Of a stretch of 33,563 bases of DNA, positions 3,696 through 27,013 are shown in pieces. Each line of letters begins with the position of its first letter. Position 1 is the first letter of the stretch. Source of the DNA: a virus (taxonomy: Duplodnaviria; Heunggongvirae; Uroviricota; Caudoviricetes); the IMG/VR virus record IMGVR_UViG_2690316149_000019. One strand, given 5' to 3'. The position numbers and the translations under genes were made by a program. Below the pieces are notes generated by a model that saw only the letters and a list, made by a program, of their open reading frames with translations, searched no databases and had not been told where the DNA came from.

Positions 3696-5970
3696 AGCCT
3701 CCGGGCGTTTTGTCCCTCCGTCAGCATTTACCGCAGGCACCGGTAAGGCGTTTACCGGTGCTTATGCATGGAACGCGCCACGCGAGGCTGTCGGGCGCGA
3801 AAGACCTCTTACACGTGACGAGATGCGTCAGGTGCAAGGTGTTTTATCCACGATTAACCGCCTGCCTTACTTTTTGCGCTCGCTGTTTACTTCACGCTAT
3901 GACTACATCCGGCGCAATAAAAGCCCGGTGCACGGGTTTTATTTCCTCACATCTACTTTTCAGCGTCGTTTATGGCCGCGCATTGAGCGTGTGAATCAGC
4001 GCCATGAAATGAACACCGACGCGTCGTTGCTGTTTCTGGCAGAGCGTGACCACTATGCGCGCCTGCCGGGAATGAATGACAAGGAGCTGAAAAAGTTTGC
4101 CGCCCGTATCTCATCGCAGCTTTTCATGATGTATGAGGAACTCTGCGATGCATGGGTTGATGCGCATGGTGAAAAAGAATCGCTGTTTACGGATGAGGCG
4201 CAGGCTCACCTGTATGGTCATGTTGCTGGCGCTGCACGTGCTTTCAATATTTCCCCGCTCTACTGGAAAAAATACCGTAAAGGACAGATGACCACGAGGC
4301 AGGCATATTCTGCCATTGCCCGCCTGTTTAACGATGAGTGGTGGACTCATCAGCTTAAAGGCCAGCGTATGCGCTGGCATGAGGCGTTACTGATAGCTGT
4401 CGGGGAGGTCAATAAAGACCGTTCTCCTTATGCCAGTAAACACGCCATTCGTGATGTGCGTGCGCGCCGCCAGGCAAATCTGGAATTTCTTAAATCGTGT
4501 GACCTTGAAAACAGGGAAACCGGCGAGCGCATCGACCTTATCAGTAAGGTGATGGGCAGTATTTCTAATCCTGAAATTCGCCGGATGGAGCTGATGAACA
4601 CCATTGCCGGTATTGAGCGTTACGCCGCCGCAGAGGGTGATGTGGGGATGTTTATCACGCTGACCGCGCCGTCAAAGTATCACCCGACACGTCAGGTCGG
4701 AAAAGGCGAAAGTAAAACCGTTCAGCTTAATCACGGCTGGAACGATGAGGCATTTAATCCAAAGGATGCGCAGCGTTATCTCTGCCGTATCTGGAGCCTG
4801 ATGCGCACGGCATTCAAGGATAATGATTTACAGGTCTACGGTTTGCGAGTCGTCGAGCCACACCACGACGGAACGCCGCACTGGCATATGATGCTTTTTT
4901 GTCATCCACGCCAGCGTAACCAGATTATCGAAATCATGCGTCGCTATGCGCTCAAAGAGGATGGCGACGAAAGAGGAGCCGCGCGAAACCGTTTTCAGGC
5001 AAAACACCTTAACCGGGGCGGTGCTGCGGGATATATCGCGAAATACATTTCAAAAAACATCGACGGCTATGCACTGGATGGTCAGCTCGATAACGACACC
5101 GGCAGGCCGCTGAAAGACACTGCAGCGGCTGTTACCGCATGGGCGTCAACGTGGCGCATCCCGCAATTTAAAACGGTTGGCCTGCCGACAATGGGGGCTT
5201 ACCGTGAACTACGCAAATTGCCTCGCGGCGTCAGCATTGCTGATGAGTTTGACGAGCGCGTCGAGGCTGCACGCGCCGCCGCAGACAGTGGTGATTTTGC
5301 GCTGTATATCAGCGCGCAGGGCGGGGCAAATGTCCCGCGCGATTGTCAGACTGTCAGGGTCGCCCGTAGTCTGTCGGATGACGTTAACGAGTACGAGGAA
5401 GAAGTCGAGAGAGTGGTCGGCATTTACGCGCCGCATCTCGGCGCGCGTCATATTCATATCACCAGAACGACGGACTGGCGCATTGTGCCGAAAGTTCCAG
5501 TCGTTGAGCCTTTGACTTTAAAAAGCGGCATCGCCGCGCCTCGGAGTCCTGTCAATAACTGTGGAAAGCTCACTGGTGGTGATACTTCGTTACCGGCTCC
5601 CACGCCTTCTGAGCACGCCGCAGCCGTGCTTAATCTGGTTGATGACGGTGTTATCGAATGGAATGACCCGGAGGTCGTGAGGGCGCTCAGGGGCGCATTA
5701 AAACACGGCCTGCGAACGCCAAACCGTCAGCAAAGAAACGGAAGCCCGTTAAAACCGCATGAAATTGCGCCATCGGCCAGACTGACCCGGTCGGAAAGAA
5801 TGCAAATTACCCGTATCCGCGTTGACCTTGCTCAGAACGGTATCAGGCCGCAGCGATGGGAGCTTGAGGCGCTGGCGCGTGGCGCGATCGTAAATTATGA
5901 CGGGAAAAAATTCACGTATCCGGTCGCTGATGAGTGGCCGGGATTCTCAACAGTAATGGAGTGGACATAA
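3685..5970 (+). CDS. A: Rolling-circle replication initiator endonuclease A (HUH superfamily)
   Basis: Contains the HUH metal-binding motif (EPHHDGTPHWHMMLF) and the catalytic tyrosine motif (YIAKYISKNIDGY). 761 aa from ATG 3685; the six-frame ORF start at 3643 is an upstream in-frame extension that overlaps the preceding gene. Confidence 0.93.
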   Translation: MAVKASGRFVPPSAFTAGTGKAFTGAYAWNAPREAVGRERPLTRDEMRQVQGVLSTINRLPYFLRSLFTSRYDYIRRNKSPVHGFYFLTSTFQRRLWPRIERVNQRHEMNTDASLLFLAERDHYARLPGMNDKELKKFAARISSQLFMMYEELCDAWVDAHGEKESLFTDEAQAHLYGHVAGAARAFNISPLYWKKYRKGQMTTRQAYSAIARLFNDEWWTHQLKGQRMRWHEALLIAVGEVNKDRSPYASKHAIRDVRARRQANLEFLKSCDLENRETGERIDLISKVMGSISNPEIRRMELMNTIAGIERYAAAEGDVGMFITLTAPSKYHPTRQVGKGESKTVQLNHGWNDEAFNPKDAQRYLCRIWSLMRTAFKDNDLQVYGLRVVEPHHDGTPHWHMMLFCHPRQRNQIIEIMRRYALKEDGDERGAARNRFQAKHLNRGGAAGYIAKYISKNIDGYALDGQLDNDTGRPLKDTAAAVTAWASTWRIPQFKTVGLPTMGAYRELRKLPRGVSIADEFDERVEAARAAADSGDFALYISAQGGANVPRDCQTVRVARSLSDDVNEYEEEVERVVGIYAPHLGARHIHITRTTDWRIVPKVPVVEPLTLKSGIAAPRSPVNNCGKLTGGDTSLPAPTPSEHAAAVLNLVDDGVIEWNDPEVVRALRGALKHGLRTPNRQQRNGSPLKPHEIAPSARLTRSERMQITRIRVDLAQNGIRPQRWELEALARGAIVNYDGKKFTYPVADEWPGFSTVMEWT

Positions 5971-6422
5971 TGGCAAAAATTCACGAGGTAAAGCTGCACG
6001 CAAAATATTTCGACCTTGTGCTGGAAGGAAAGAAACGCGCAGAGTTTCGGAAAAATGACCGTAATTATGAGCGCGGGGACACGTTGATTTTGCATGAATG
6101 GGTGCAGGGTGTGTATACGGGGCGAAAGGTTGAAGCCCGGATAACAGATGTTACTGACCTGTCAGACTGGCTGGAAGATTATGTCTTGCTAAGTATTGAG
6201 CTGCTTAATACAGGTGCATATGAGATTGTGAACTGGAAAGAACTTAGTGAGCGTGGTCTGGTATTCAGAATTAATCATGAAATTATGCATCAGCTCGGCC
6301 TTGCTGTTATGTATGAACCAGAGACGGGGATGTCTGGCGGGGCAATGGTTGCCACGGATGGAGCATGGAACTATTCAGATGAACAGATGGAGCGTGCACA
6401 GCAAAACGGGTGGCTTGGATAA
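5970..6422 (+). CDS. Accessory protein with N-terminal ASCH/DUF3850-like (PUA-fold) domain and unknown C-terminal half
   Basis: N-terminus MAKIHEVKLHAKYFDLVLEGKKRAEFRKNDRNYERGDTLILHEW resembles DUF3850/ASCH domains. Start overlaps the A stop (TAATG). Occupies the position where P2 carries orf91/tin/old. Confidence 0.6.
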   Translation: MAKIHEVKLHAKYFDLVLEGKKRAEFRKNDRNYERGDTLILHEWVQGVYTGRKVEARITDVTDLSDWLEDYVLLSIELLNTGAYEIVNWKELSERGLVFRINHEIMHQLGLAVMYEPETGMSGGAMVATDGAWNYSDEQMERAQQNGWLG

Positions 6423-6655
6423 TGCACAGAATGCCAGGCGAGATACCGCACCATAAAACTAAAAATATCAAGCTGATGGCTGTTGTTCACCGTCTACAGC
6501 AGATTATGGTCAACGAAAATCTGACGCCCGATGAGCTGGTCGGGTGTGCCGAAATAGTCCGGGATAATTACAGACGGTTTAACGATATCAGTAGACAGAA
6601 AAGTGAGACATTTCGGCCAGCTAACATGCCAAAACCACCACCACGCAGGCCGTAG
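6422..6655 (+). CDS. Small hypothetical protein
   Basis: 77-aa ORF, start overlapping the upstream stop (TAATG); proline- and basic-rich C-terminus, no recognisable domain. Could be spurious. Confidence 0.35.
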   Translation: MHRMPGEIPHHKTKNIKLMAVVHRLQQIMVNENLTPDELVGCAEIVRDNYRRFNDISRQKSETFRPANMPKPPPRRP

Positions 6656-6888
6656 AGAACCCCGCTATCCATGAAACTTGCTTTCAGGGAGGCGGGTTGA
6701 ATAAAAGTAGCTTTGCCGAAAAGTCTAACTATCTTGGTTTTTGCTGGTCCAAAGTTAATAAACAAACCTGCTTGTATGCAGCGGGTTTCCATATTGCCGT
6801 TTCGTATGCATGCCGCACCGTGCAAAGAGTATGAAAAATGTTATGGAAAAACGGGGATTAGTGTTATATTAATGGCTGAAAAGTGGTC

Positions 6889-6917
6889 TTGACACAGGTT
6901 GTTGTGTGTGGTAAGGC
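6889..6917 (+). promoter_or_regulatory. Candidate sigma70 promoter for the peptidase gene
   Basis: TTGACA at 6889-6894 followed 17 nt later by a weak -10 (TAAGGC); AGGAGG Shine-Dalgarno at 6944-6949 before ATG 6954. Confidence 0.3.
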
Positions 6918-6953
6918 TGTATCCCTTTGGCATTCAAAATGTAGGAGGCAACC

Positions 6954-7430
6954 ATGAGCATCGCAGCTAAAAATCTGCTTAATCGCTATTGGGATCGCCG
7001 ACTACCTGTCGATCCGTTTAAGCTCGCCGCAGCGTGGGGTGCAAGAGTGGAGCCGCTCAGGGAACCAGCGAATGGGTTAAGTGGTTCAGCCGTAATAGAA
7101 AATGGCATACCTTATATTTATTTTAACTCAAATGAACATTACAACCGCCAACGCTTTACTGTAGCGCATGAGCTCGGTCATCATGTTTTAGGGCATACTC
7201 AAGACGGAGAATATCATCGCGATATTGTAGGCAACTACTCAACTGGCATCCGTGATTATCGTGAAATAGAAGCTAACCAGTTTGCTGCAGAGCTATTGAT
7301 GCCGGAAGAGGCCATTCGTCAACTAGTGTCGCGTATAGGCGTTGATAGTACATTACGTTTGGCAAACATATTTAACGTTTCTGAGGCTGCTATGCACTGG
7401 CGTCTTAAAGCGTTGGGTATGGCTTACTAA
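6954..7430 (+). CDS. ImmA/IrrE-family (COG2856-like) zinc metallopeptidase
   Basis: HEXXH motif in FTVAHELGHHVLGH and a downstream glutamate-containing motif (EANQFAAELLMP). 158 aa with a strong AGGAGG ribosome-binding site. Confidence 0.75.
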   Translation: MSIAAKNLLNRYWDRRLPVDPFKLAAAWGARVEPLREPANGLSGSAVIENGIPYIYFNSNEHYNRQRFTVAHELGHHVLGHTQDGEYHRDIVGNYSTGIRDYREIEANQFAAELLMPEEAIRQLVSRIGVDSTLRLANIFNVSEAAMHWRLKALGMAY

Positions 7431-7460
7431 TACCCTCTTTAACTTTTTTCAAACCGGTTT

Positions 7461-7495
7461 AAAATCACCATTATTTTATTAATAATGGTGATTTT
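7461..7495. promoter_or_regulatory. Perfect 15-bp inverted repeat (aaaatcaccattatt / aataatggtgatttt, 5-nt loop) abutting the ATG of the membrane-protein gene
   Basis: Seen in sequence. Preceded by the 10-bp palindrome aaaccggttt (7451-7460) and followed by a T-run; the right arm contains the only Shine-Dalgarno-like element (GGTGA) for ATG 7498. Confidence 0.6.
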
Positions 7496-7497
7496 TT

Positions 7498-8118
7498 ATG
7501 GCAGATATCGACCTCTCTGGCCAATCTCCGGCTCAGTCTTCCCAGCCATCCAAAACTTCAACCTTTCCACATCCACCTAGCGATGCCGATCCAGATATTT
7601 TGTTACGTAGAGAAGTGCATGATGGCATGGAAAGGAGGGGAATGCGCTTAGTTTTGTCAGCCACCGTACTTTTTTTTGCCATAATGTTTTTATGGAAAGG
7701 TCTGTATTTCGCTCTCGAAGTCGGAAATGGTTTGCTTGCGGCTAAAAGTAGTATTGTTTCAGCGTTGGCACAAAATGATGAAAAGGTTGTTTGCGAACCT
7801 AAAACTAAATGTATTGAGCCTAAACAGCAGACAATGAAACCTACAGAAAAAACTCCCGGCATGTCAACAAAGGGTGATAGAGTAATGCCAAACTTATCTA
7901 CAGATTGGCTTTCTGCAAGTTCGCTAATTGCCATAGTCGCTTTCATCCTTGGTGTTGGCTTGACGTTAATCCTTACCCTACTTAAGTCCGCTTTTCATCA
8001 TCCGACTGATAAAAATCTCAATGAGCAAAAAACAACAGATGCGATTGAGTTGGCGACTCCCTTAAGTGAGTTAATCGCGGGTATTATTAATTATCTCAAG
8101 AGCAAATTTTCTAAATAA
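7498..8118 (+). CDS. Membrane protein of unknown function (two predicted transmembrane helices)
   Basis: 206 aa with hydrophobic stretches LVLSATVLFFAIMFLWKGLYFAL and LIAIVAFILGVGLTLILTLL and a Pro/Ser/Thr-rich N-terminus; lower GC than the phage core. Confidence 0.6.
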   Translation: MADIDLSGQSPAQSSQPSKTSTFPHPPSDADPDILLRREVHDGMERRGMRLVLSATVLFFAIMFLWKGLYFALEVGNGLLAAKSSIVSALAQNDEKVVCEPKTKCIEPKQQTMKPTEKTPGMSTKGDRVMPNLSTDWLSASSLIAIVAFILGVGLTLILTLLKSAFHHPTDKNLNEQKTTDAIELATPLSELIAGIINYLKSKFSK

Positions 8119-8327
8119 CGTCCTCTTGGTTATTTTTTAAATCAGCACCATTAGTGCCGGTTTTTTTATGCTGTTTTACTGTAATTTCCCTGTTTTTAAG
8201 CCGTGCATGCAGCAGGTGCATGGTTTTGCATGCGCAGGAAGTGTCCGTTCTGGCCGAGCACCGGCAGAACGGACGCGGATCCAGAACGGTCATGCAACTG
8301 CATTCAAACCACCCCATGAAGCGGGCG

Positions 8328-8346
8328 GGCGAGGCGGGGAAAGCAC
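8328..8346. other. cos: cos site (19-nt cohesive end sequence, P2-type)
   Basis: ggcgaggcggggaaagcac matches the P2 cohesive-end sequence as I recall it. It lies between the accessory locus and Q, where cos sits in P2, and a 10-bp stem-loop (8243-8274) is nearby. Confidence 0.7.
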
Positions 8347-8515
8347 TGCGCGCTGGCGGTGGTGCTGATTTTATTTTTTCAGCGTCTGAGCGCGTCGTGA
8401 TGGCGTTTAGATTGTGCGCCGGGGCGTTGGTGTGTCTGCGGGCTGTTTTGTGCGGTGGTGAGCGTGTGAGGGCGTGATGACGGGGGGTAAAAAAGCCGCC
8501 CGCAGGCGGCGATGT

Positions 8516-9550
8516 TCAGCCGTTGTCAGTGTCCAGTGAGTAGTTTTTAAAGCGGATGACCTCCTGACCGAGCCAGCCGTTTATCTCGCGGATCCTGTCC
8601 TGTAACGGGATAAGCTCATTGCGGACAAAGACCTTTGCCACTTTCTCAATATCACCCAGCGACCCGACGTTCTCCGGCTTGCCGCCCATCAACTGAAAGG
8701 GGATGCGGTGCGCGTCCAGCAGGTCAGCGGCGCTGGCTTTTTTGATATTAAAAAAATCGTCCTTCGTTGCCACTTCACTGAGCGGGATAATTTTAATGCC
8801 GTCGGCTTTCCCCTGCGGGGCATAGAGAAACAGATTTTTAAAGTTGTTGCGGCCTTTCGACTTGACCATGTTTTCGCGAAGCATTTCGATATCGTTGCGA
8901 TCCTGCACGGCATCGGTAACGTACATGATATATCCGGCATGAGCGCCGTTTTCGTAATACTTGCGGCGGAACAGCGTGGCCGACTCATTCAGCCAGGCAG
9001 AATTAAGGGCGCTGAGATATTCCGGCAGGCCGTACAGCTCCTGATTAATATCCGGCTCCAGCAGGTGAAACACGGAGCCGGGTGCGAAGGCTGTCGGCTC
9101 GTTGAAGGACGGCACCCACCAGTAAACATCCTCCTCCACACCTCGGCGGGTATATTTTGCCGGTGAGGTTTCCAGTCTGATGACCTTACCGGTGGTGCTG
9201 TAACGCTTTTCCAGAAACGCATTACCGAACACCAGAAAATCCAGCACAAAGCGGCTGAAATCCTGCTGGGAAAGCCACGGATGCGGGATAAATGTCGAGG
9301 CCAGAATATTACGTTTGACGTAAATCGGTGAGCTGTGATGCACGGCAGCACGCAGGCTTTTTGCCAGACCGGTAAAGCTGATCGGTGGCTCATACCATCT
9401 GCCGTTACTGATGCACTCGACGTAATCCAGAATGTCACGGCGGTCGAGTACCGGCACCGGCTCACCAAAGGTGAATGCTTCCATTTTCGGGGCGCTGGCG
9501 GTCATTGTTTTTGCCGCAGGTTGCGGTGTTTTCCCTTTTTTCTTGCTCAT
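8516..9550 (-). CDS. Q: Portal protein
   Basis: 344-aa ORF matching P2 gpQ in length and position; start overlaps the stop of P. Confidence 0.9.
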   Translation of the reverse strand: MSKKKGKTPQPAAKTMTASAPKMEAFTFGEPVPVLDRRDILDYVECISNGRWYEPPISFTGLAKSLRAAVHHSSPIYVKRNILASTFIPHPWLSQQDFSRFVLDFLVFGNAFLEKRYSTTGKVIRLETSPAKYTRRGVEEDVYWWVPSFNEPTAFAPGSVFHLLEPDINQELYGLPEYLSALNSAWLNESATLFRRKYYENGAHAGYIMYVTDAVQDRNDIEMLRENMVKSKGRNNFKNLFLYAPQGKADGIKIIPLSEVATKDDFFNIKKASAADLLDAHRIPFQLMGGKPENVGSLGDIEKVAKVFVRNELIPLQDRIREINGWLGQEVIRFKNYSLDTDNG

Positions 9551-12404: not shown

Positions 12405-13478
12405 ATGCGCCAGGAAACCCGCTTTAAATTTAATGCCTACCTGTCCCGTGTTGCCGAACTGAACGGCATCGACGCCGGTGATGTGTCGAAAAAATTCACC
12501 GTTGAACCGTCGGTCACCCAGACCCTGATGAACACCATGCAGGAGTCCTCTGACTTTCTGACCCGCATCAACATTGTGCCGGTCAGCGAAATGAAAGGGG
12601 AAAAAATTGGCATCGGTGTCACCGGCTCCATCGCCAGCACCACCGACACCGCCGGTGGCACCGAGCGTCAGCCGAAGGACTTCTCGAAGCTGGCGTCAAA
12701 CAAGTACGAATGCGACCAGATTAACTTCGATTTTTATATCCGCTACAAAACGCTGGACCTGTGGGCGCGTTATCAGGATTTCCAGCTCCGTGTCCGTAAC
12801 GCCATTATCAAACGCCAGTCCCTTGATTTCATCATGGCCGGTTTTAACGGCGTGAAGCGTGCCGAAACCTCTGACCGCAGCAGTAACCCGATGCTGCAGG
12901 ATGTGGCGGTCGGCTGGCTGCAGAAATACCGCAATGAAGCTCCGGCGCGCGTGATGAGCAAGGTCACTGACGAGGAAGGCCATACCACCTCTGAGGTTAT
13001 CCGCGTGGGTAAGGGCGGTGATTATGTCAGCCTTGATGCACTGGTGATGGATGCGACCAATAACCTGATTGAACCGTGGTATCAGGAAGACCCTGACCTT
13101 GTGGTGATTGTGGGGCGTCAGCTACTGGCGGACAAGTATTTCCCCATCGTCAACAGGGAGCAGGACAACAGCGAAATGCTGGCCGCTGACGTCATCATCA
13201 GCCAGAAACGCATCGGTAACCTGCCAGCGGTACGCGTCCCGTACTTCCCGGCGGATGCGATGCTCATCACGAAGCTGGAAAACCTGTCCATCTACTACAT
13301 GGATGACAGCCATCGCCGCGTGATTGAGGAAAACCCGAAACTCGACCGCGTGGAGAACTACGAGTCAATGAACATTGATTACGTGGTGGAAGACTACGCC
13401 GCCGGCTGTCTGGTGGAAAAAATTAAGGTCGGTGATTTCTCCACACCGGCTAAAGCGACCGCAGAGCCGGGAGCGTAA
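12405..13478 (+). CDS. N: Major capsid protein
   Basis: 357 aa, P2 gpN length and position. Confidence 0.9.
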   Translation: MRQETRFKFNAYLSRVAELNGIDAGDVSKKFTVEPSVTQTLMNTMQESSDFLTRINIVPVSEMKGEKIGIGVTGSIASTTDTAGGTERQPKDFSKLASNKYECDQINFDFYIRYKTLDLWARYQDFQLRVRNAIIKRQSLDFIMAGFNGVKRAETSDRSSNPMLQDVAVGWLQKYRNEAPARVMSKVTDEEGHTTSEVIRVGKGGDYVSLDALVMDATNNLIEPWYQEDPDLVVIVGRQLLADKYFPIVNREQDNSEMLAADVIISQKRIGNLPAVRVPYFPADAMLITKLENLSIYYMDDSHRRVIEENPKLDRVENYESMNIDYVVEDYAAGCLVEKIKVGDFSTPAKATAEPGA

Positions 13479-13481
13479 CCG

Positions 13482-14225
13482 ATGACGAGTCCCGCACAGC
13501 GCCACATGATGCGGGTCTCGGCAGCGATGACCGCGCAGCGGGACGCCGCCCCGCTGCGACATGCAACTGTCTATGAGCAGATGCTGGTTAAGCTGGCCGC
13601 AGACCAGCGCACACTGAAAGCGATTTATTCAAAAGAGCTGAAGGCCGCGAAAAAGCGCGAACTGCTGCCGTTCTGGTTGCCGTGGGTGAACGGTGTGCTG
13701 GAGCAGGGCAAAGGCGCACAGGATGACATTCTGATGACGGTCATGCTGTGGCGTCTGGATACCGGCGATATTGCCGGTGCGCTGGAGATTGCCCGTTATG
13801 CCCTGAAGTACGGTCTGACCATGCCGGGTAAACACCGCCGTACCCCGCCGTACATGTTCACCGAGGAAGTGGCTCTCGCGGCCATGCGCGCTCACGCTGC
13901 CGGTGAGTCTGTGGATCCCCGCCTGCTGACGGACACCCTTGAACTGACCGCCACGGCTGACATGCCTGATGAAGTGCGCGCAAAGCTGCACAAAATCACC
14001 GGTCTGTTTCTGCGTGACGCTGGTGATGCCGCAGGGGCGCTGGCACACCTGCAACGTGCGACACAGCTCGACTGTCAGGCAGGCGTCAAAAAAGAGATTG
14101 AACGACTGGAGCGGGAGCTGAAACCGAAGCCGGAGCCGCAGCCCAAAGCGGCCACCCGCGCCCCGCGTAAGACCCGGAGCGTGACACCGGCAAAACGTGG
14201 ACGCCCGAAAAAGAAAGCCAGTTAA
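13482..14225 (+). CDS. M: Terminase small (endonuclease) subunit
   Basis: 247 aa with a basic C-terminal tail, as in P2 gpM. Confidence 0.88.
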   Translation: MTSPAQRHMMRVSAAMTAQRDAAPLRHATVYEQMLVKLAADQRTLKAIYSKELKAAKKRELLPFWLPWVNGVLEQGKGAQDDILMTVMLWRLDTGDIAGALEIARYALKYGLTMPGKHRRTPPYMFTEEVALAAMRAHAAGESVDPRLLTDTLELTATADMPDEVRAKLHKITGLFLRDAGDAAGALAHLQRATQLDCQAGVKKEIERLERELKPKPEPQPKAATRAPRKTRSVTPAKRGRPKKKAS

Positions 14226-14324
14226 CAACCGAATGCGCCCCGCGCCAGGGCGGCACGCCGGTCAGTGAGGGTGAATCACCTGACACTGCACCGGCGTCCA
14301 CCGCCCGACTTTTCAGAGGTAGTC

Positions 14325-14834
14325 ATGATGACGCTGATTATTCCGCGAAAGGAGGCTCCCGTGTCCGGTGAGGGTACGGTGGTCATCCCGCAACCGGCAG
14401 GCGACGAGCCGGTGATTAAAAACACGTTCTTTTTTCCCGATATCGACCCGAAGCGCGTCCGGGAACGTATGCGCCTTGAGCAGACCGTCGCCCCCGCCCG
14501 TCTGCGTGAGGCCATCAAGTCAGGCATGGCTGAAACGAATGCGGAGCTGTACGAGTACCGCGAACAGAAAATTGCTGCCGGTTTTACGCGTCTGGCGGAC
14601 GTTCCGGCGGACGACATCGACGGTGAAAGCATCAAGGTTTTTTACTACGAGCGCGCCGTGTGCGCGATGGCGACCGCGTCGCTTTATGAGCGTTATCGCG
14701 GCGTGGATGCCAGTGCGAAAGGCGACAAGAAGGCTGACAGCATTGACAGCACCATTGATGAACTGTGGCGGGATATGCGCTGGGCGGTGGCGCGTATCCA
14801 GGACAAGCCGCGCTGCATCGTGAGTCAAATCTGA
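14325..14834 (+). CDS. L: Head completion / stabilisation protein
   Basis: 169 aa from MMTLIIPRKEAPVSGEG, matching P2 gpL. Confidence 0.88.
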   Translation: MMTLIIPRKEAPVSGEGTVVIPQPAGDEPVIKNTFFFPDIDPKRVRERMRLEQTVAPARLREAIKSGMAETNAELYEYREQKIAAGFTRLADVPADDIDGESIKVFYYERAVCAMATASLYERYRGVDASAKGDKKADSIDSTIDELWRDMRWAVARIQDKPRCIVSQI

Positions 14835-15037
14835 TGAAGACCTTTGCGCTACAGGGCGACACGCTCGACGCCATTTGTGTCCGGTATTACGGGCGCACTG
14901 AGGGCGTGGTTGAGACCGTGCTCGCCGCAAATCCGGGACTGGCTGAACTGGGTGCGGTGCTGCCACATGGCACCGCCGTCGAACTGCCCGACGTTCAGAC
15001 CGCGCCCGTGGCTGAAACTGTCAATCTGTGGGAGTAA
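14834..15037 (+). CDS. X: Tail protein X
   Basis: 67 aa from MKTFALQGDTLDAICVRYYG; start overlaps the L stop (TGATG). Confidence 0.85.
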   Translation: MKTFALQGDTLDAICVRYYGRTEGVVETVLAANPGLAELGAVLPHGTAVELPDVQTAPVAETVNLWE

Positions 15038-15040
15038 CGC

Positions 15041-15322
15041 ATGACAGCAGAAGAAAAAAGCGTCCTGTCGCTTTTCATGATTGGGGTGCTGATTGTTGTC
15101 GGCAAGGTGCTTGCCGGTGGTGAACCCATCACCCCGCGTCTGTTTATCGGGCGCATGTTGCTCGGCGGTTTTGTCTCGATGGTTGCCGGTGTTGTTCTGG
15201 TGCAGTTTCCTGACCTGTCACTGCCTGCGGTGTGCGGCATCGGCTCCATGCTGGGTATCGCCGGTTATCAGGTGATTGAGATTGCCATTCAGCGCCGCTT
15301 TAAGGGCAGGGGGAAACCGTAA
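15041..15322 (+). CDS. Y: Holin
   Basis: 93 aa, hydrophobic (VLSLFMIGVLIVVGKVLAGG...), first gene of the lysis cassette. Confidence 0.85.
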   Translation: MTAEEKSVLSLFMIGVLIVVGKVLAGGEPITPRLFIGRMLLGGFVSMVAGVVLVQFPDLSLPAVCGIGSMLGIAGYQVIEIAIQRRFKGRGKP

Positions 15323-17763: not shown

Positions 17764-18549
17764 TTATGAGTGATTTTTATTTGATGCTTTGTATTCTAAA
17801 ACCTTCTTATTGGCGTAAAAGAATTTTGTATATGACAGGAATATAACCAGACCTGAAGTGAAATAGACGAGGGATAGTATTAATAATGCTTTTTTGTGAC
17901 TGTTATTATCTTTAATCTCCTGGCTTAACCATTCGGAGTCCTCCTCGTTTAGCTGTAAGAGCTTATTGCAGGCGATTTCAGGAAGTGTGTCTTTTATAAA
18001 TACGTTTTGCAGTCTCTTGCAATCGGCAAGGCTATAAGTTTTATTAAATTCAACTGCTTTATTTTTGAAGGATAAAAGAACTTTGTCACTATAAACATAG
18101 TACATCATATTTTTATATGGTATGCCTATGGCATCTCTTACTATAGCGGATTGTTTGTTGTGTATATAACATGCGAAGAGAATATAAATAATACTGGCCA
18201 GAATTACAATTATTGTTTTAATTATGTGTGGTGGTTTTGTTATGTCACCCCAGATGCGAGTAAGGAAAAAATACGATGTTTTTAGTTTTCCATCAATCAG
18301 TCCCTGCTGTATCATTCTCACATTTTCAATGCCTGATACATTGATTCCGTTAATTATTTTAAATAGTTGAATGTCGCGCCACTCGCGGTCAAGTCTTTTT
18401 AATTTTTTGTCTGAATATCCAAAATTGAAATAATGTGCAATAAGCCTCATAAGGTTACTTTTACCAAAGCTAAAAAATGCTAATACTGCAAAGCTACAAA
18501 GGAAAAAAACGATTAGCCCCCACACATTAGTCACATTATAGCTGACCAT
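17764..18549 (-). CDS. AT-rich moron: membrane protein of unknown function (P2 orf30 position)
   Basis: 261 aa with three hydrophobic helices (N-terminal, central, C-terminal), Lys/Asn/Ile/Tyr-rich. Much lower GC than the flanking tail genes and transcribed against the late operon. Confidence 0.7.
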   Translation of the reverse strand: MVSYNVTNVWGLIVFFLCSFAVLAFFSFGKSNLMRLIAHYFNFGYSDKKLKRLDREWRDIQLFKIINGINVSGIENVRMIQQGLIDGKLKTSYFFLTRIWGDITKPPHIIKTIIVILASIIYILFACYIHNKQSAIVRDAIGIPYKNMMYYVYSDKVLLSFKNKAVEFNKTYSLADCKRLQNVFIKDTLPEIACNKLLQLNEEDSEWLSQEIKDNNSHKKALLILSLVYFTSGLVIFLSYTKFFYANKKVLEYKASNKNHS

Positions 18550-18632
18550 TACGCTCTCCTTGAATGTTGTCTGGTAGTTCTACAAATGAATCCAGATAGC
18601 ATAACTTTTATATATTGTGCAATCTCACATGC

Positions 18633-19268
18633 ATGAACACTCTCGCAAATATTCAGGAACTCGCGCGCGCACTGCGCAACATGATTCGCACCGGCATTAT
18701 CGTCGAAACCGACCTTAACGCCGGTCGCTGCCGCGTGCAGACCGGCGGCATGTGCACCGACTGGCTTCAGTGGCTGACCCATCGTGCCGGGCGTTCGCGC
18801 ACATGGTGGGCACCTTCCGTGGGGGAACAGGTGCTGATTCTGGCCGTGGGCGGTGAACTCGACACGGCGTTCGTTCTGCCGGGGATTTATTCCGGCGATA
18901 ACCCTGCGCCGTCTGCGTCGGCTGATGCCCTGCATATCCGTTTCCCTGACGGGGCGGTGATTGAGTATGAACCCGAAACCAGTGCACTCACGGTAAGCGG
19001 AATTAAAACGGCCAGCGTGACGGCTTCTGATTCTGTTACTGCCACGGTACCGGTGGTCACGGTGAAAGCGTCAACCCGTGTCACCCTGGACACACCAGAA
19101 GTGGTCTGCACTAACAAACTGACTACCGGCACGCTGGAAGTGCAGAAGGGCGGGACGATGCGCGGCAACATTGAACACACCGGCGGTGAACTCTCATCAA
19201 ACGGTAAGGTACTGCATACCCATAAACACCCCGGCGACAGCGGCGGCACAACCGGGAGTCCTTTATGA
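18633..19268 (+). CDS. V: Baseplate spike protein
   Basis: 211 aa from MNTLANIQELARALRNMIRTG, matching P2 gpV. Confidence 0.88.
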   Translation: MNTLANIQELARALRNMIRTGIIVETDLNAGRCRVQTGGMCTDWLQWLTHRAGRSRTWWAPSVGEQVLILAVGGELDTAFVLPGIYSGDNPAPSASADALHIRFPDGAVIEYEPETSALTVSGIKTASVTASDSVTATVPVVTVKASTRVTLDTPEVVCTNKLTTGTLEVQKGGTMRGNIEHTGGELSSNGKVLHTHKHPGDSGGTTGSPL

Positions 19269-21058: not shown

Positions 21059-23308
21059 ATGAGCACAAAATTCAAAACCGTTATCACCACTGCTGGTGCA
21101 GCAAAGCTGGCAGCGGCAACCGCGCCGGGAGGGCGGAAGGTCAACATTACCACGATGGCCGTCGGGGATGGCGGTGGTAAATTGCCTGTCCCGGATGCCG
21201 GACAGACCGGGCTTATCCACGAAGTCTGGCGACATGCGCTGAACAAAATCAGCCAGGACAAACGAAACAGTAATTATATTATCGCAGAGCTGGTTATTCC
21301 GCCGGAGGTGGGCGGTTTCTGGATGCGTGAGCTTGGCCTGTACGATGATGCTGGAACGTTAATTGCCGTGGCGAACATGGCTGAAAGTTATAAGCCAGCT
21401 CTTGCCGAAGGCTCAGGGCGTTCGCAGACCTGCCGCATGGTCATCATCGTCAGCAGTGTGGCCTCAGTGGCGCTGACCATTGACACCACAACGGTGATGG
21501 CAACGCAGGATTACGTTGATGACAAAATTGCAGAACATGAACAGTCACGACGTCACCCGGACGCCTCGCTGACCGCCAAAGGTTTTACTCAGTTAAGCAG
21601 TGCGACCAACAGCACGTCTGAAACACTCGCCGCAACACCAAAAGCGGTAAAAGCAGCATATGACCTTGCTAACGGGAAATACACTGCACAGGACGCCACC
21701 ACAGCGCGAAAAGGCCTTGTCCAGCTCAGTAGTGCCACCAACAGCACGTCTGAAACGCTCGCCGCAACACCAAAAGCGGTAAAAGCAGCATATGACCTTG
21801 CTAACGGGAAATACACTGCACAGGACGCCACCACCGCGCGAAAAGGCCTTGTCCAGCTCAGTAGCGCCACCAACAGCGATTCTGAAACGCTTGCGGCAAC
21901 GCCAAAGGCGGTTAAGACAGCGTATGACCTTGCTAACGGGAAATACACTGCACAGGATGCCACCACAGCGCGAAAAGGTCTTGTCCAGCTCAGTAGCGCC
22001 ACCAACAGTGATTCTGAAACGCTGGCTGCAACACCAAAAGCGGTGAAGTCTGCCTATGACAATGCTGAAAAACGTCTTCAGAAAGATCAGAACGGTGCGG
22101 ATATTCCTGATAAAGGACGCTTCCTGAGTAACATTAATGTTTACAGCAAAGGTGAAGTGGATAAGAAAAAGGGAATGCGAAAGTATTCGTTTGCAGCCCC
22201 TGCAAATGTCGTTGCCGGGAAGTGGTATCCCGTTATCTTTCGCCGTGCTGCCAGCCTTTCAGGAGAAATGGCATCCCGCGTCGTTATTTCAACTGGTTGT
22301 TATAACGGCGATTATGTAATGAATAACTGCGAGTTTAATGGCATGGTTATGCCCGGAGGCTGGACCGATCGTGGTTCATATGCGGCAGGTTATTTCTGGA
22401 CGTATCAGACTAATGAGCGTTCAATCCATTCCATTGTTACAAGCCTGAAAGATGATGATGTATGTAGTGTTTTTTATGTTGAAGCCAGAGCTTTCCCTGT
22501 GCAAATTCTTGCAGAGGAAGGGCTAACGGTTATTGTTCCGACAGAGGATTATGTCGTCGGTCAAACGACATATAAGTGGGGGGCAACTAATCCCGCTACA
22601 GAAAGCACGAACGCACAGGCTATTCTGGATTTTAAAAATGGACGTGGTTATTACTGTTCACATCCATTTATTTCCAGCCTTTCAGGAAATGCTGCAACAG
22701 CAACGAAGTTAGCGAACGCAAGAAATATTAATGGTGTCAGATTTGATGGCTCTGCCGATATAAATATTAATACACTGGTATCCAGAAACCGTGTTAATGC
22801 ATTAGGTGGGAGCGTAAAGGGGACACCAGGTATTCAGATGTATGAGGCATACAACAATGGCTACCCAACAGCCTATGGTAATGTGCTTCATCTCACTGGC
22901 GTAACCGCAGTAGGAGAGGGTGAGTTACTTATTGGCTGGAGTGGAACCAGCGGTGCTCATGCTCCGGCATATATTCGTTCCCGACGAGATACCACAGATG
23001 CTAACTGGTCTGGATGGGCGCAACTATATACAACTGCTCATAAACCCTCAGCGGGAGATGTTGGTGCATACACCAAAACTGAGTCAGATTCACGTTATGT
23101 GAGAGACATGCGGCTGGGCGGTGCATCTACATATAAACCAGCAAATAATGGTACTACATGGACGCATCAGGCTCCGTCAGGTTGCGTATATACCGGCATT
23201 ATTGTTCAGGATACCGGCTCAAACTCTGCCGATAACATTGGTGGCGTATATTACAGACCGGTGCAGAAATACATTAACGGGACATGGTATAACGTGGCGC
23301 AGGTATAA
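21059..23308 (+). CDS. H: Tail fibre protein H with internal tandem repeats
   Basis: 749 aa with a conserved P2-like N-terminus (MSTKFKTVITTAGAAKLAAATAPGG), then four tandem 44-aa repeats, then a C-terminal domain of about 400 aa. Confidence 0.88.
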   Translation: MSTKFKTVITTAGAAKLAAATAPGGRKVNITTMAVGDGGGKLPVPDAGQTGLIHEVWRHALNKISQDKRNSNYIIAELVIPPEVGGFWMRELGLYDDAGTLIAVANMAESYKPALAEGSGRSQTCRMVIIVSSVASVALTIDTTTVMATQDYVDDKIAEHEQSRRHPDASLTAKGFTQLSSATNSTSETLAATPKAVKAAYDLANGKYTAQDATTARKGLVQLSSATNSTSETLAATPKAVKAAYDLANGKYTAQDATTARKGLVQLSSATNSDSETLAATPKAVKTAYDLANGKYTAQDATTARKGLVQLSSATNSDSETLAATPKAVKSAYDNAEKRLQKDQNGADIPDKGRFLSNINVYSKGEVDKKKGMRKYSFAAPANVVAGKWYPVIFRRAASLSGEMASRVVISTGCYNGDYVMNNCEFNGMVMPGGWTDRGSYAAGYFWTYQTNERSIHSIVTSLKDDDVCSVFYVEARAFPVQILAEEGLTVIVPTEDYVVGQTTYKWGATNPATESTNAQAILDFKNGRGYYCSHPFISSLSGNAATATKLANARNINGVRFDGSADININTLVSRNRVNALGGSVKGTPGIQMYEAYNNGYPTAYGNVLHLTGVTAVGEGELLIGWSGTSGAHAPAYIRSRRDTTDANWSGWAQLYTTAHKPSAGDVGAYTKTESDSRYVRDMRLGGASTYKPANNGTTWTHQAPSGCVYTGIIVQDTGSNSADNIGGVYYRPVQKYINGTWYNVAQV
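21578..22059 (+). repeat. Four tandem in-frame copies of a 132-bp unit inside H
   Basis: The marker accaacagc recurs at 21605, 21737, 21869 and 22001, an exact 132-bp period. Copies differ at a few synonymous and missense positions (NSTSE vs NSDSE). Confidence 0.9.
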
Positions 23309-23311
23309 TTT

Positions 23312-23839
23312 ATGCAGCATTTAAAAAATATTACGGCGGGTAATCCAAAAACGGTTGAACAATATCAATTGACAAAGGACTTTGATGTTGTCTGGTTTTT
23401 TTCAGAAGATGGTAAGAACTGGTACGAAGAACAAAAGTATTTTGCTGATGACACGATAAAAATAGCGTACGACAAAGATAATATCATCCACTATGTGGAA
23501 AAGGATGTGACAGCTATCAGACCGGATGGATTAAGTGTTGTTGAAGTGGCGGATATTACTGCTAACCGACGGGCGGACATTTCAGGGAACTGGATGTTTA
23601 AGGACGGCAAAGTGATTAAACGCATTTATACGGCAGAGGAATTACAGCAGCAGGCAGAAATTCGGAAAGCCAGACTTCTTGCAGATGCTGAATCCGTGAT
23701 TTTGCCGCTGGAGCGCGCGGTCAGACTGAACATGGCAACAGATGAGGAGCGTAGCCGACTGGAATCATGGGAACGCTACAGCGTTCTGATCAGTCGTGTG
23801 GATCCTGCAAATCCTGAATGGCCGGAAATGCCGCAATAA
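23312..23839 (+). CDS. G: Tail fibre assembly chaperone
   Basis: 175 aa immediately downstream of H. Confidence 0.85.
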
Positions 23840-24178
23840 GTTGTATGAACTCTTGTGTGAGCTTACATACCTATAGAACAGAGTAAAGCCTAATCTGACA
23901 GTCCGCTCTGTGCCAGGAGCGGACATAACGACACGTTAGTTAGAAATCTCAAGACCAATTAGGTTGGATACTTACATGTATACTATTGCCTAACGATACT
24001 ACCCTATCAACCTCATGGTTTATAGGCGGGGGTGAGAGCCAATCGAACGCTATCGTACGTTTTTATGCTGTCTACCCTAGACCCCAAGTAGACATGAATC
24101 TTACCTGATTTCCATACGAGGGCGACGTTGATCATCCAGCTTTAGTGCGAGCACTGAACTTAACATTTACCAGCAATA

Positions 24179-25225
24179 GTGATATTTTCTACAAAGAAAA
24201 ATATATGGAATAACGTCATCGCGGGTACAAAAATGACTATAAAAAAAACATATGTAACACCAACAGAAATAGTGAAATATTTTTATGACAAACCGGAAAA
24301 CGATAACGTAAAAGAGAGAAAAACAATTGAGAGCCTGACCCGTCTCAAACCTGAGTGGGAAAATACTCTCGATATGATGAAGTTAATACGCAATTGTGAA
24401 AAGCTAGCAACTGAAGGTATTTTAATGGAATTATCTTCAGGACATACTCTTTTGGACCGTTGCTATTTCGCACCGAATTTCAATGAATCAGATGCGAAAT
24501 ATGGAAAGTATGATTTTATAGCTGATGGATTTGAGTCAATCATAGACCGCCTTAGTCCTTCCGTTTTACCTGTTGTTGTTGAAAAAAGTGATGGTTCACA
24601 TGATCTTGGTACTAGTTTTATTGTTGGGAATAACCACACGATATTTACAGCCAGACATGTTATTGAAGACATGAAGAGTATCAGGATACTTAGAGCTGGT
24701 GGTGAGGCTTTACCAATACATAAAATCTTTGTATCTAACGATGAACGTATTGATATCGCTTTAGTTTTCACAACCATTCCGAATGAAGATAATATTCAAC
24801 CACTTAAGGTCTCAACCAAAGCCTCGGTACTGGATGAAATTTTATCAATAGGATTTCCACCCATTCCAGGATTTGATGCATTAAAGTTATATGACGTTTC
24901 GCATATAAATTCGTTTGTCCGACTGTCAAAGGGGCGAATTGTTGGTTCTGGTCACTCTTACTTAGATTCACAAGACTTTTTATTATTCAATGCTAGGGTT
25001 AAGGGGGGGAATAGCGGTGGCCCTATAATTAACAAATACGGCTTTGTTGTTGGTATGCTTGTACAAATACCAATATCATCTGAGGACAGTTCAAAGATTG
25101 ATAACCTTGGATATGGTATAGCTGTAACAGGAAAAAGCCTGCTGGATGCCATTACATTTACAGAAAATGGCCGCGAATTAACACTCACCGACCGAGGAAA
25201 TGGAGAATATTCAACTCTAGCATAA
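24179..25225 (+). CDS. AT-rich moron: trypsin-like (S1/chymotrypsin-fold) serine protease with an unknown N-terminal domain of about 140 aa
   Basis: Catalytic triad context in order: TARHVIED (His), ERIDIALVF (Asp), GGNSGGPII (GxSGG Ser). The annotated start is a GTG; an in-frame ATG at 24233 is an alternative. Occupies the P2 Z/fun position between G and FI. Confidence 0.75.
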   Translation: MIFSTKKNIWNNVIAGTKMTIKKTYVTPTEIVKYFYDKPENDNVKERKTIESLTRLKPEWENTLDMMKLIRNCEKLATEGILMELSSGHTLLDRCYFAPNFNESDAKYGKYDFIADGFESIIDRLSPSVLPVVVEKSDGSHDLGTSFIVGNNHTIFTARHVIEDMKSIRILRAGGEALPIHKIFVSNDERIDIALVFTTIPNEDNIQPLKVSTKASVLDEILSIGFPPIPGFDALKLYDVSHINSFVRLSKGRIVGSGHSYLDSQDFLLFNARVKGGNSGGPIINKYGFVVGMLVQIPISSEDSSKIDNLGYGIAVTGKSLLDAITFTENGRELTLTDRGNGEYSTLA

Positions 25226-25700
25226 ATGATATTATTAATTAAGTTGTACTAACTCAGTTTAAATGAATCAAGCATCCCCGTAACTTTGCCTGAAAAGGCT
25301 CATCGAGGGATGCACATTGTACGGATGTGTGAAAACTAAATCGGCTTTGTCACTTGGATTCGAGGGGAAAACTGAACTGAAAGCGATAAAAACGTCTAAA
25401 AAATCGTTTCGCAGACAGATGCACCCGATTCAAGCCATTTTGAGGAAGGCTTTCTGCCTTTTATATTTATATTAATCATAAGCTTATTCCATTGGTGTAC
25501 GATATCGTGCTTTGCCCCTCATCTCCCAGATAACTAATTAGCCTTAAAATTACTCATGTGTTTCTGCCGGTTAAAATTATATGGTTTTCATTTACAATAG
25601 TCTCAAGTCCGCTCTTCGCTCAAAGCAGACTGTCAGATTTGATAGCATTTGGGCTATGTAAATTGTCAGGCGGAAAATGAGTGAGTACAAATCAGGACAG

Positions 25701-25725
25701 GCGGGCGAATTGCCCGCATTTTCTT
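25701..25725 (+). terminator. Rho-independent terminator upstream of the FI late promoter
   Basis: gcgggcgaattgcccgc palindromic hairpin followed by a T-rich run (attttcttt). Confidence 0.55.
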
Positions 25726-25822
25726 TATCTGTTGTTTCATCCCCTGACCAGCCAGGTCAAATAGCGTCTCATGCTCTGCACAACAGAAAATAGTTGCACC
25801 CATTAACCACGGAGTTAAACGG

Positions 25823-27013
25823 ATGAGTGACTATCATCACGGTGTGCAGGTGCTGGAGATTAACGACGGCACCCGCGTCATTTCCACCGTATCCACGGCC
25901 ATTGTCGGCATGGTCTGCACGGCCAGCGATGCGGATGCGGAAACCTTCCCCCTCAATAAACCGGTGCTGATTACCAATGTGCAGAGCGCAATTGCAAAGG
26001 CCGGTAAAAAAGGCACGCTGGCGGCATCGTTGCAGGCCATCGCCGACCAGTCAAAACCGGTCACCGTTGTCGTGCGTGTGGAAGACGGCACCGGCGACGA
26101 CGAGGAAACGAAACTCGCGCAGACCGTTTCCAATATCATCGGCACCACTGACGAAAACGGTCAGTACACCGGACTGAAAGCCCTGCTGGCGGCGGAGTCG
26201 GTAACCGGTGTTAAACCGCGTATTCTTGGTGTGCCGGGGCTGGATACCAAAGAGGTGGCTGTTGCACTGGCATCAGTCTGTCAGAAGCTGCGCGCTTTCG
26301 GATATATCAGCGCATGGGGCTGTAAAACCATTTCCGAGGTGAAAGCCTACCGCCAGAATTTCAGCCAGCGTGAGCTGATGGTCATCTGGCCGGATTTCCT
26401 CGCATGGGATACGGTCACCAGTACCACCGCCACCGCGTATGCCACCGCCCGTGCGCTGGGTCTGCGTGCCAAAATCGACCAGGAGCAGGGCTGGCATAAA
26501 ACGCTGTCCAACGTCGGGGTAAACGGTGTTACCGGCATCAGCGCATCTGTATTCTGGGATTTGCAGGAGTCCGGCACCGATGCTGACCTGCTTAACGAGT
26601 CAGGCGTCACTACGCTGATTCGCCGCGACGGTTTCCGATTCTGGGGTAACCGTACCTGCTCTGATGACCCGCTGTTCCTCTTTGAAAACTACACCCGCAC
26701 CGCGCAGGTGCTGGCCGACACGATGGCTGAGGCGCACATGTGGGCGGTGGACAAGCCCATCACTGCAACGCTGATTCGCGACATTGTTGACGGCATCAAT
26801 GCCAAATTCCGTGAGCTGAAAACAAACGGCTATATCGTGGATGCGACCTGCTGGTTCAGCGAAGAATCCAACGATGCGGAAACCCTCAAGGCCGGAAAAC
26901 TGTATATCGACTACGACTATACACCGGTGCCTCCTCTTGAAAACCTGACCCTGCGCCAGCGTATTACCGATAAATACCTGGCAAATCTGGTCACCTCGGT
27001 TAACAGCAATTAA
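25823..27013 (+). CDS. FI: Tail sheath protein
   Basis: 396 aa, P2 gpFI length and position. Confidence 0.9.
   Translation: MSDYHHGVQVLEINDGTRVISTVSTAIVGMVCTASDADAETFPLNKPVLITNVQSAIAKAGKKGTLAASLQAIADQSKPVTVVVRVEDGTGDDEETKLAQTVSNIIGTTDENGQYTGLKALLAAESVTGVKPRILGVPGLDTKEVAVALASVCQKLRAFGYISAWGCKTISEVKAYRQNFSQRELMVIWPDFLAWDTVTSTTATAYATARALGLRAKIDQEQGWHKTLSNVGVNGVTGISASVFWDLQESGTDADLLNESGVTTLIRRDGFRFWGNRTCSDDPLFLFENYTRTAQVLADTMAEAHMWAVDKPITATLIRDIVDGINAKFRELKTNGYIVDATCWFSEESNDAETLKAGKLYIDYDYTPVPPLENLTLRQRITDKYLANLVTSVNSN

Follow-up and report, generated by a model that had tools for sequence, protein, structure and literature searches.

A stand-alone winged-helix/S1 protease in the G-FI cargo slot of P2-like prophages as a candidate anti-phage defence gene

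We analysed a stretch of 33,563 nucleotides from a tailed-phage record (Caudoviricetes; IMG/VR record IMGVR_UViG_2690316149_000019), hereafter the window, in which a segment of low GC content between the tail genes G and FI carries a single long gene for a trypsin-like (S1) serine protease fused to an N-terminal winged-helix (WH) domain. The gene is a plausible candidate for a stand-alone WH-S1 protease defence gene: we put the probability that it acts as a single-protein anti-phage system of the abortive-infection (Abi) type at roughly 0.55, and hold the details of how it would act with less confidence. An interpretation made earlier from the letters alone, the sequence-only reading, had pointed in the same direction. 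Its two premises, cargo at the second P2 site and an intact single-gene protease, have held up, and the defence-island neighbours of distant homologs now strengthen the defence reading.

The protease gene and the limits of its genetic unit

The window represents a complete P2-like prophage, running from the integrase and replication gene A through portal, terminase, head, lysis and tail genes to D and ogr. GC content falls to 0.35-0.40 over about 24050-25700, compared with 0.55-0.60 in FI and downstream (37.6% for the module 23925-25606, 56.3% for FI and 51.7% for the whole window), and this profile, together with the identities of the flanking genes (Table 1), confirms the low-GC insert that had been placed between G and FI. 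The slot is the documented Z/fun variable locus of P2, lying between G and FI, bounded by inverted repeats and variable in content, which likewise supports the earlier assignment to the second classical P2 cargo site, filled with horizontally acquired cargo.

The sole long open reading frame (ORF) of the insert lies at 24179-25225 on the plus strand and comprises 348 aa if counted from a GTG codon, as it originally was. Several observations correct this to 330 aa from the ATG at 24233. PHROG 18002 aligns to residues 19-348 of the GTG-initiated frame over profile positions 1-330 of 330 (E=4.3e-235), the RefSeq entry for the protease (WP_000152899.1, 'S1 family peptidase') is 330 aa long, and the ATG is kept in orthologs together with a promoter just upstream, the GTG at 24179 falling inside the conserved -10 box of that promoter. 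The longer protein is thereby ruled out. Counted from the ATG, the non-coding DNA before the gene measures 393 bp (339 bp if counted from the GTG), and 597 bp follow the stop codon, so that the previously quoted 340 and 600 bp are right as lengths, the upstream flank really extending to the true ATG.

The Pfam Trypsin_2 profile matches the protease domain with 64.8 bits against a cut-off of 27.6, placing it in the S1 chymotrypsin fold. In an alignment of 39 homologs (28-88% identity), His142, Asp174, Ser261 and the surrounding KGGNSGGP motif are invariant, which bears out the complete His/Asp/Ser triad, with its GGNSGGP signature, of the sequence-only reading. A database search returned 74 relatives, mostly of 310-360 aa, from Enterobacterales, Pseudomonas, Nitrospina, Bacteroidota and metagenomes. 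An AlphaFold2 model built from the 39-relative alignment reached a predicted local distance difference test score (pLDDT) of 85.4 and a predicted template modelling score (pTM) of 0.84, and Foldseek aligned the protease domain of this model structurally with DegQ, DegP, DegS and MarP (E about 1e-13, about 20% identity); a profile-versus-PDB sequence search yielded the same HtrA-type families (hidden Markov model (HMM) E about 1e-14), and a viral structure library generic trypsin folds only. About 55 aa follow the Pfam protease domain, modelled as a short helix and a beta-hairpin. Within the domain, a GYPPIPGFD motif is strongly conserved in residues 207-226 (window about 24851-24910) and leads into the one loop that the model gives with very low confidence (pLDDT below 50, residues 212-226), a candidate regulatory, autoinhibitory or substrate-gating element.

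With HtrA, DegS, DegP and MarP (MEROPS S1C-type), its best structural and sequence matches, the protein shares the chymotrypsin fold, the His-Asp-Ser triad and a GNSGG-type motif. Those enzymes are core envelope-stress genes with a PDZ domain and an export signal or anchor, whereas the present protease is cargo of mobile elements and has an N-terminal winged helix in their place. Pfam detects no PDZ domain in it, and we found no signal peptide or transmembrane segment, the N-terminus being hydrophilic and the maximal 19-residue Kyte-Doolittle mean 1.2. Since its NCBIfam scores, 20-45 bits against cut-offs of 250-800 (best 45 bits against 416, TIGR02037), also reach only about a tenth of what is demanded, the protease is placed by its sequence outside the HtrA family proper, and is predicted to be a soluble cytoplasmic protein.

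The part preceding the protease had been described as an uncharacterised domain of about 140 aa. Uncharacterised it is, but it divides into a WH fold of about 98 aa and a helical linker. The N-domain gave no significant match by sequence in Pfam, PADLOC or a sequence-profile search of the PDB, and its WH identity was found by fold comparison only. Although the fold matches WH DNA-binding domains (MarR/PadR-like), it does not have their basic recognition helix and wing: across the family the domain has a median isoelectric point of 5.2 and a net charge of -3, and helix 3 and the wing have a median net charge of 0. Because the domain is acidic and these elements neutral, we favour a WH that binds protein, like those of RPA32C, Stn1 or the kleisins, rather than DNA. 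A profile HMM of the N-domain recovered only 123 proteins from 1.84 billion cluster representatives, and the ten length outliers that we scanned were fragments or extended forms of WH plus Trypsin_2, save one repeat-protein false positive; the domain is therefore private to the family and not shuffled among effectors, and the idea of an N-domain common to other effectors was dropped after this exhaustive search. A hint of CTD12, the Pfam domain of ABC-3C, was likewise set aside: at 18.1 bits it is below the cut-off of 25, it covers residues 5-46 of the GTG-extended frame and thus partly sequence upstream of the real start, and it was absent from a scan of the true N-domains of 27 members.

The limits of the genetic unit emerge from a comparison with three orthologous loci, L008, L009 and a Klebsiella plasmid (L016), of about 80-86% identity to the window. 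At the DNA level, only the gene itself, ~80-110 bp before its ATG and ~40-90 bp after its stop codon are similar, and the similarity ends at about 25262-25312. Orthologs of about 80% identity share both promoter boxes and the ATG without change, while the DNA directly before the promoter is unrelated. The hairpin beyond the stop codon is probably the 3' end or a stability element of the mRNA; its CATCCC...GGGATG stem is kept in the window and L009 and largely lost in L008. An Rfam search of 23300-26000 returned nothing at E up to 1, and in the 14 contexts examined no neighbouring gene or RNA is conserved beside the protease. Four small flanking ORFs (23986-24108, 24013-24135 on the minus strand, 25317-25475 and 25558-25680) were rejected as partner proteins because they lie in non-conserved DNA, and a structured RNA, retron-like non-coding RNA or RNA antitoxin in the flanks was discarded in view of the empty Rfam search and the lack of flank conservation in the orthologs. 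Conservation thus stops at the promoter, one gene and the 3' hairpin, which together constitute the functional unit. This supports the single-gene unit assumed earlier and leaves the supposed functional need for the long flanking DNA unsupported.

Table 1 Features of the insert and its surroundings (window coordinates unless a locus is named)
Feature	Position	Strand	Remarks
Gene G	23312-23839		Tail-fibre assembly protein, Caudo_TAP match
Left inverted-repeat arm	23892-23924	.	Holds 24-nt palindrome/hairpin 23901-23924 (GTCCGCTCTGTGCCAGGAGCGGAC), folding at -17.3 kcal/mol
Mobile cassette	23901-25636	+	>99% identity across P2, thrW-island and lambdoid contexts; non-P2 matches cover query 62/66-1792/1797
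Sigma-70 promoter of the cassette	24160-24188	+	-35 TTAACA, 17-nt spacer, extended -10 TGaTATTTT (consensus scan)
Coding sequence, 330-aa winged-helix/S1 protease	24233-25225	+	Stop TAA 25223-25225
N-terminal winged-helix domain, aa 1-98	24233-24526	+	By fold comparison; acidic, private to the family
Trypsin_2 (S1, HtrA-like) protease domain, aa 126-275	24608-25057	+	Pfam E=1.8e-17
Catalytic codons	His142 24656-24658; Asp174 24752-24754; Ser261 25013-25015	+	Coordinates verified
Hairpin about 45 nt past the stop codon	25272-25313	+	Folds at -20.5 kcal/mol
Non-coding tail of the E. coli cassette	25314-25606	.	Confined to the 41 E. coli copies, all of which have it; missing from 80-86% orthologs; no Rfam match
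Right inverted-repeat arm	25607-25639	.	Holds palindrome 25607-25630
Backbone terminator-like hairpin and T-run	25701-25717	+	Between cargo slot and FI region; -13.7 kcal/mol; kept in P2-EC67 with different cargo
Gene FI	25823-27013		Tail sheath
Further palindrome copies	L002 (lambdoid prophage) 2328-2351, 6001-6024, 7707-7730
Further palindrome copies	L010 (thrW island) 6997-7020, 8703-8726; L016 (Klebsiella plasmid) 9148-9171; L008 3764-3787

Roughly 225 bp of upstream and 290 bp of downstream non-coding DNA are confined to the E. coli version of the cassette. The downstream part could be the remnant of an earlier recombination or an unrecognised small transcript; promoter-like sites lie in it at 25440-25467 and 25571-25598, and a terminator-like hairpin at 25444-25462. 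One could speculate that such flanks belong to an addiction or toxin module that stabilises the element or excludes competitors, the protease being a toxin restrained by its N-domain or by a small RNA or peptide encoded in the flanks. The 393- and 597-bp flanks do travel with the E. coli cassette, the 3' flank has promoter-like and terminator-like sites, toxin-antitoxin genes (GNAT/DUF1778, HipA, hokD) lie beside homologs, and a precedent exists in IetAS, a serine protease toxin with an ATPase antitoxin (PMC13069673). However, flank conservation in the 80-86% orthologs stops after about 100 bp, no Rfam family matches, no partner ORF is conserved in any of the 14 contexts, and the adjacent toxin-antitoxin genes vary from case to case and are thus neighbours rather than partners, so that an addiction module appears improbable.

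The ratio of nonsynonymous to synonymous substitution rates (dN/dS) is 0.07-0.21 for the N-domain and 0.10-0.13 for the protease domain, at synonymous divergences (dS) of 0.5-1.6. Both domains are under purifying selection, and the gene is therefore no chance ORF. The same data bear on the notion of a decaying or functionless passenger gene, which its rarity (41 of 5,426 E. coli genomes, see below) and the apparently junk non-coding DNA around it might suggest. A dN/dS of 0.10-0.15 over dS values of up to about 1, a triad invariant in 39 homologs across phyla, a conserved promoter and a length kept at 310-360 aa effectively refute it.

Movement of the cassette between elements

The insert is bounded by two 33-nt inverted-repeat arms that are 85% complementary, each of which holds a 24-nt imperfect palindrome of the form GTCYGCTYT-N6-ARAGCRGAC. 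The GenBank records of the P2 Z region (AJ512676-AJ512685) annotate these arms as 'left/right inverted repeat', and P2-like phages keep them regardless of their cargo, the right-arm matches starting at query positions 1765-1768. Neither the slot and its inverted repeats nor the notion of cargo exchange is new.

We surveyed 5,426 complete E. coli genomes with the 1,983-nt insert as query, and separated contexts with junction-specific queries. The cassette was present, at 98.6% identity or more over the full query, in 41 genomes. Thirteen of these carry it between G and FI of a P2-like prophage, which amounts to about 1% of the 1,319 genomes in which this P2 junction exists, and 27 in a decayed island at tRNA-Thr (proA-thrW), beside DUF2971/PDC-S31, DUF4236 and DRT8; in the remaining one it sits in a lambdoid prophage between a DUF2254 gene and hokD. 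In all three contexts the shared sequence starts and stops within the palindromes, and the cargo block next to the cassette in the lambdoid prophage (BCCT-transporter/DUF2254) is delimited by a third copy of the palindrome. An ortholog with 84% identity on Klebsiella IncF plasmids adjoins an IS3 transposase and also has the palindrome, 173 bp past its stop codon. Some changes in the palindrome stems are compensatory. Judged by these junctions, the insert behaves as a self-contained, horizontally mobile one-gene cassette, and the palindrome looks like a general cassette-exchange site.

The distribution also settles one condition under which a role in defence was to be given up, namely that the enzyme be a tail-associated structural protease conserved in the P2 core. 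This possibility is excluded, because the gene is rare at the locus (13 of about 1,319) and present outside P2 and outside phages altogether. No member of the family is encoded by any of 50,697 deposited phage genomes, and IMG/VR yielded ten prophage fragments that are nearly identical and, more distant, three relatives of full length. A different use by mobile elements would be counter-defence or inter-element warfare, in which the protease destroys an immunity protein or repressor of the host or of a rival element. Anti-defence genes also gather in variable phage loci, the carriers here are prophages, a primase-bearing element and plasmids, and a protein-binding WH could target a specific rival protein. 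Such a weapon nevertheless seems quite improbable to us, for the gene's own constitutive-type promoter in an otherwise silent late operon fits expression in the lysogen rather than early in the lytic cycle, the deposited phages do not encode the family, and homologs also occupy plain chromosomal sites.

Evidence for and against a role in defence

The G-FI locus is the second P2 defence hotspot, to which fun and three experimentally found defence systems map (PMC9519451). In P4 hotspots, six of eight genes not assayed before proved defensive once tested, and 15-32% of the P2 genes of unknown function are predicted to be antiviral (10.64898/2026.02.27.708500). The other Z/fun cargo, namely fun, retron Ec67/AbiP2-type reverse transcriptases (RTs) and the three PD systems of Vassallo et al., has the slot, the inverted repeats, the lower GC content and the presence/absence polymorphism in common with the protease cassette, but differs in gene content. 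In the P2-hotspot literature (PMC9122126, PMC9519451, 10.64898/2026.02.27.708500), this protease figures neither among the cargos described nor among those tested, and the supplementary tables of the 2026 P2/P4 preprint contain no trypsin entry and no accession match. The family is so far annotated only generically, as 'S1 family peptidase' or as PHROG 18002 of unknown function.

PADLOC matched the protease domain only, with RT-Protease_XI (7e-13, covering profile positions 340-486 only), LmuA (5e-10), HamA (2e-7) and also PDC-M35A, in keeping with the earlier statement that the gene could not be assigned to a named system. Trypsin-like domains are established defence effectors, in which the protease alone is inactive and a trigger drives oligomerisation via a fused sensor (PMC12799240). 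The protease modules of Hachiman, Lamassu, AVAST and DRT systems, which pair a protease with a metallo-beta-lactamase (MBL) pro-nuclease, and retron type XI share a Trypsin_2-type domain with the present protein. The former differ by a fused HamA, LmuA, Avs or RT and an adjacent MBL nuclease, none of which is found in our protein or cassette, and Pfam detects no RVT domain in the protease that would make it a retron of type XI.

The closest likeness in logic, as opposed to fold, may be to Lit of prophage e14, a zinc metalloprotease that cleaves EF-Tu once a T4 capsid peptide appears. Lit is likewise a prophage-encoded, single-gene, cytoplasmic protease thought to be latent until a phage product arrives, and the same logic may apply here by analogy, although Lit is unrelated to the S1 protease in fold and sequence. 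IetAS also contains a serine protease, but IetS is subtilisin-like, and the present enzyme has the S1 fold and no ATPase partner. In IetAS the protease toxin needs the IetA ATPase, and the pair has been implicated in plasmid stabilisation and anti-phage defence (PMC13069673).

The genomic neighbours of the homologs provide further, circumstantial evidence. In the thrW island of E. coli (L010), the cassette is accompanied by DRT8 (5e-166, 13453-15081) and PDC-S31, and in L011 a homolog lies near DRT2 (1e-143, 6900-8324), with an SNF2 helicase also beside the DRT2-linked homolog. Both RTs are of full length and lie only a few kb away from the protease homolog of their genome, the two genomes being unrelated; this probably reflects co-residence in islands and not a functional link. 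Single homologs adjoin an LmuB-like SMC ATPase (3e-29) with a TPR-CHAT protein, a type I HsdR with a transposase, PDC-S15 and, on a viral contig, HipA with an AAA_15/21 ATPase. A second P2-like prophage that carries a homolog has GAPS4 in its other hotspot. One further homolog, in an element with a DUF927/Toprim primase, lies beside HEPN_AbiU2 and a DUF4238 protein, and a single-protein DUF4238 system has been validated from P2 (PMC9122126). Such defence-type neighbourhoods strengthen the defence reading, though as guilt by association and not as proof.

A number of observations weigh on the other side. Four of the 14 contexts have neither a defence nor a mobile-element neighbour: the homologs of Nitrospina, L007 and L013 lie among housekeeping or unannotated genes, and that of L029 beside an epimerase and a PAPS reductase. 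Unlike many modular defence sensors, the WH is not exchanged between effectors, no PADLOC model matches outside the protease domain, and a literature search with the protein accessions and PHROG 18002 found no paper. P2 cargo slots, moreover, are also home to genes outside defence, for instance partition systems and the cytolethal distending toxin (PMC9122126). Together with the homologs in housekeeping neighbourhoods, this last point could speak for a 'moron' gene that serves lysogenic conversion or fitness and has nothing to do with phage defence; its product would act in the cytoplasm in regulation or quality control and would change the physiology or virulence of the host, perhaps through breakdown of a regulator. 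Quality control is the classic task of HtrA-type proteases, and among the P2-site copies listed (100 and 99.9% matches), nine of 13 come from human isolates, including ETEC-2265 and TW10722. Yet the protein has neither a PDZ domain nor periplasmic targeting and scores far under the HtrA family cut-offs, and defence genes typically show the pattern seen here, a patchy, cross-phylum spread on mobile elements with defence genes as neighbours in most contexts. We therefore regard a moron as an unlikely, if reasonable, explanation.

Returning to defence, a working model can be sketched in which everything that goes beyond an intact, autonomously expressed cytoplasmic protease with a private WH is inferred. 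The protein would probably be made in the lysogen, since the gene's own sigma-70 promoter lies within late tail operons that are then silent. It would have to be held inactive in uninfected cells, because it is cytoplasmic and catalytically intact. The WH domain, which we take as the putative sensor by analogy with fused sensors elsewhere, would recognise a phage-derived cue, more likely a protein than DNA given its acidity, and recognition would activate the protease, probably by oligomerisation as in the trypsin-type defence modules. The activated enzyme might then cleave a protein of the phage, or a broadly conserved one of the host, so that infection fails; such a substrate suggests itself because no dedicated substrate gene accompanies the protease and the family spans several phyla. 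This particular version, a minimal self-contained receptor-effector whose WH binds a phage protein and whose oligomerisation leads to cutting of a conserved host factor or phage protein, is offered tentatively, as one possible scheme that is more doubtful than the defence role itself.

Other variable regions and implications

Further variable regions are apparent in the prophage. Its other hotspot, between A and the portal gene Q, is also filled with low-GC cargo (window 5934-8500): a DUF3850/ASCH plus DUF7415 protein at 5934-6422, an ImmA/IrrE Peptidase_M78 protein with a CapP-like PADLOC match (3.8e-31) at 6954-7430, and two ORFs without matches at 7498-8118 and 8154-8477, which may together form an uncharacterised multi-gene system. 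At 17764-18935, two overlapping ORFs of 261 and 128 aa on the minus strand, opposite to the surrounding late genes, lie in a patch of 44% GC between the tail-completion genes and baseplate gene V; neither has a Pfam or PADLOC match, and the region, which corresponds in position to P2 orf30, seems to be a third site for cargo. Finally, the tail-fibre gene H (21059-23308) contains three or four tandem copies of a motif of roughly 44 aa (…ARKGLVQLSSATNS.SETLAATPKAVK.AYDLANGKYTAQDATT…), and its C-terminal half and gene G have a lower GC content (0.42-0.48), consistent with a swapped receptor-binding module.

The recent transfer of the cassette at >99% identity among three unrelated contexts, the P2 slot, a lambdoid prophage and a tRNA island, can be traced with unusual clarity and makes cargo exchange at the P2 Z/fun locus approachable with a concrete pair of sequences. 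Even if the protein is not defensive, it is a conserved, selected and mobile cytoplasmic S1 protease. Protease-based bacterial immunity is understood largely via multi-component systems, such as protease and pro-nuclease pairs, CHAT/Craspase, gasdermin-activating proteases and CalpL. The present system would be easy to study, its trigger via escaper phages and its substrate via proteomics. If the proposed role is true, it would be the first stand-alone S1-protease Abi and the serine-protease counterpart of Lit, with no ATPase, nuclease partner or second messenger, and thus the simplest protease immune module known, in which a protein of 330 aa both senses and executes.

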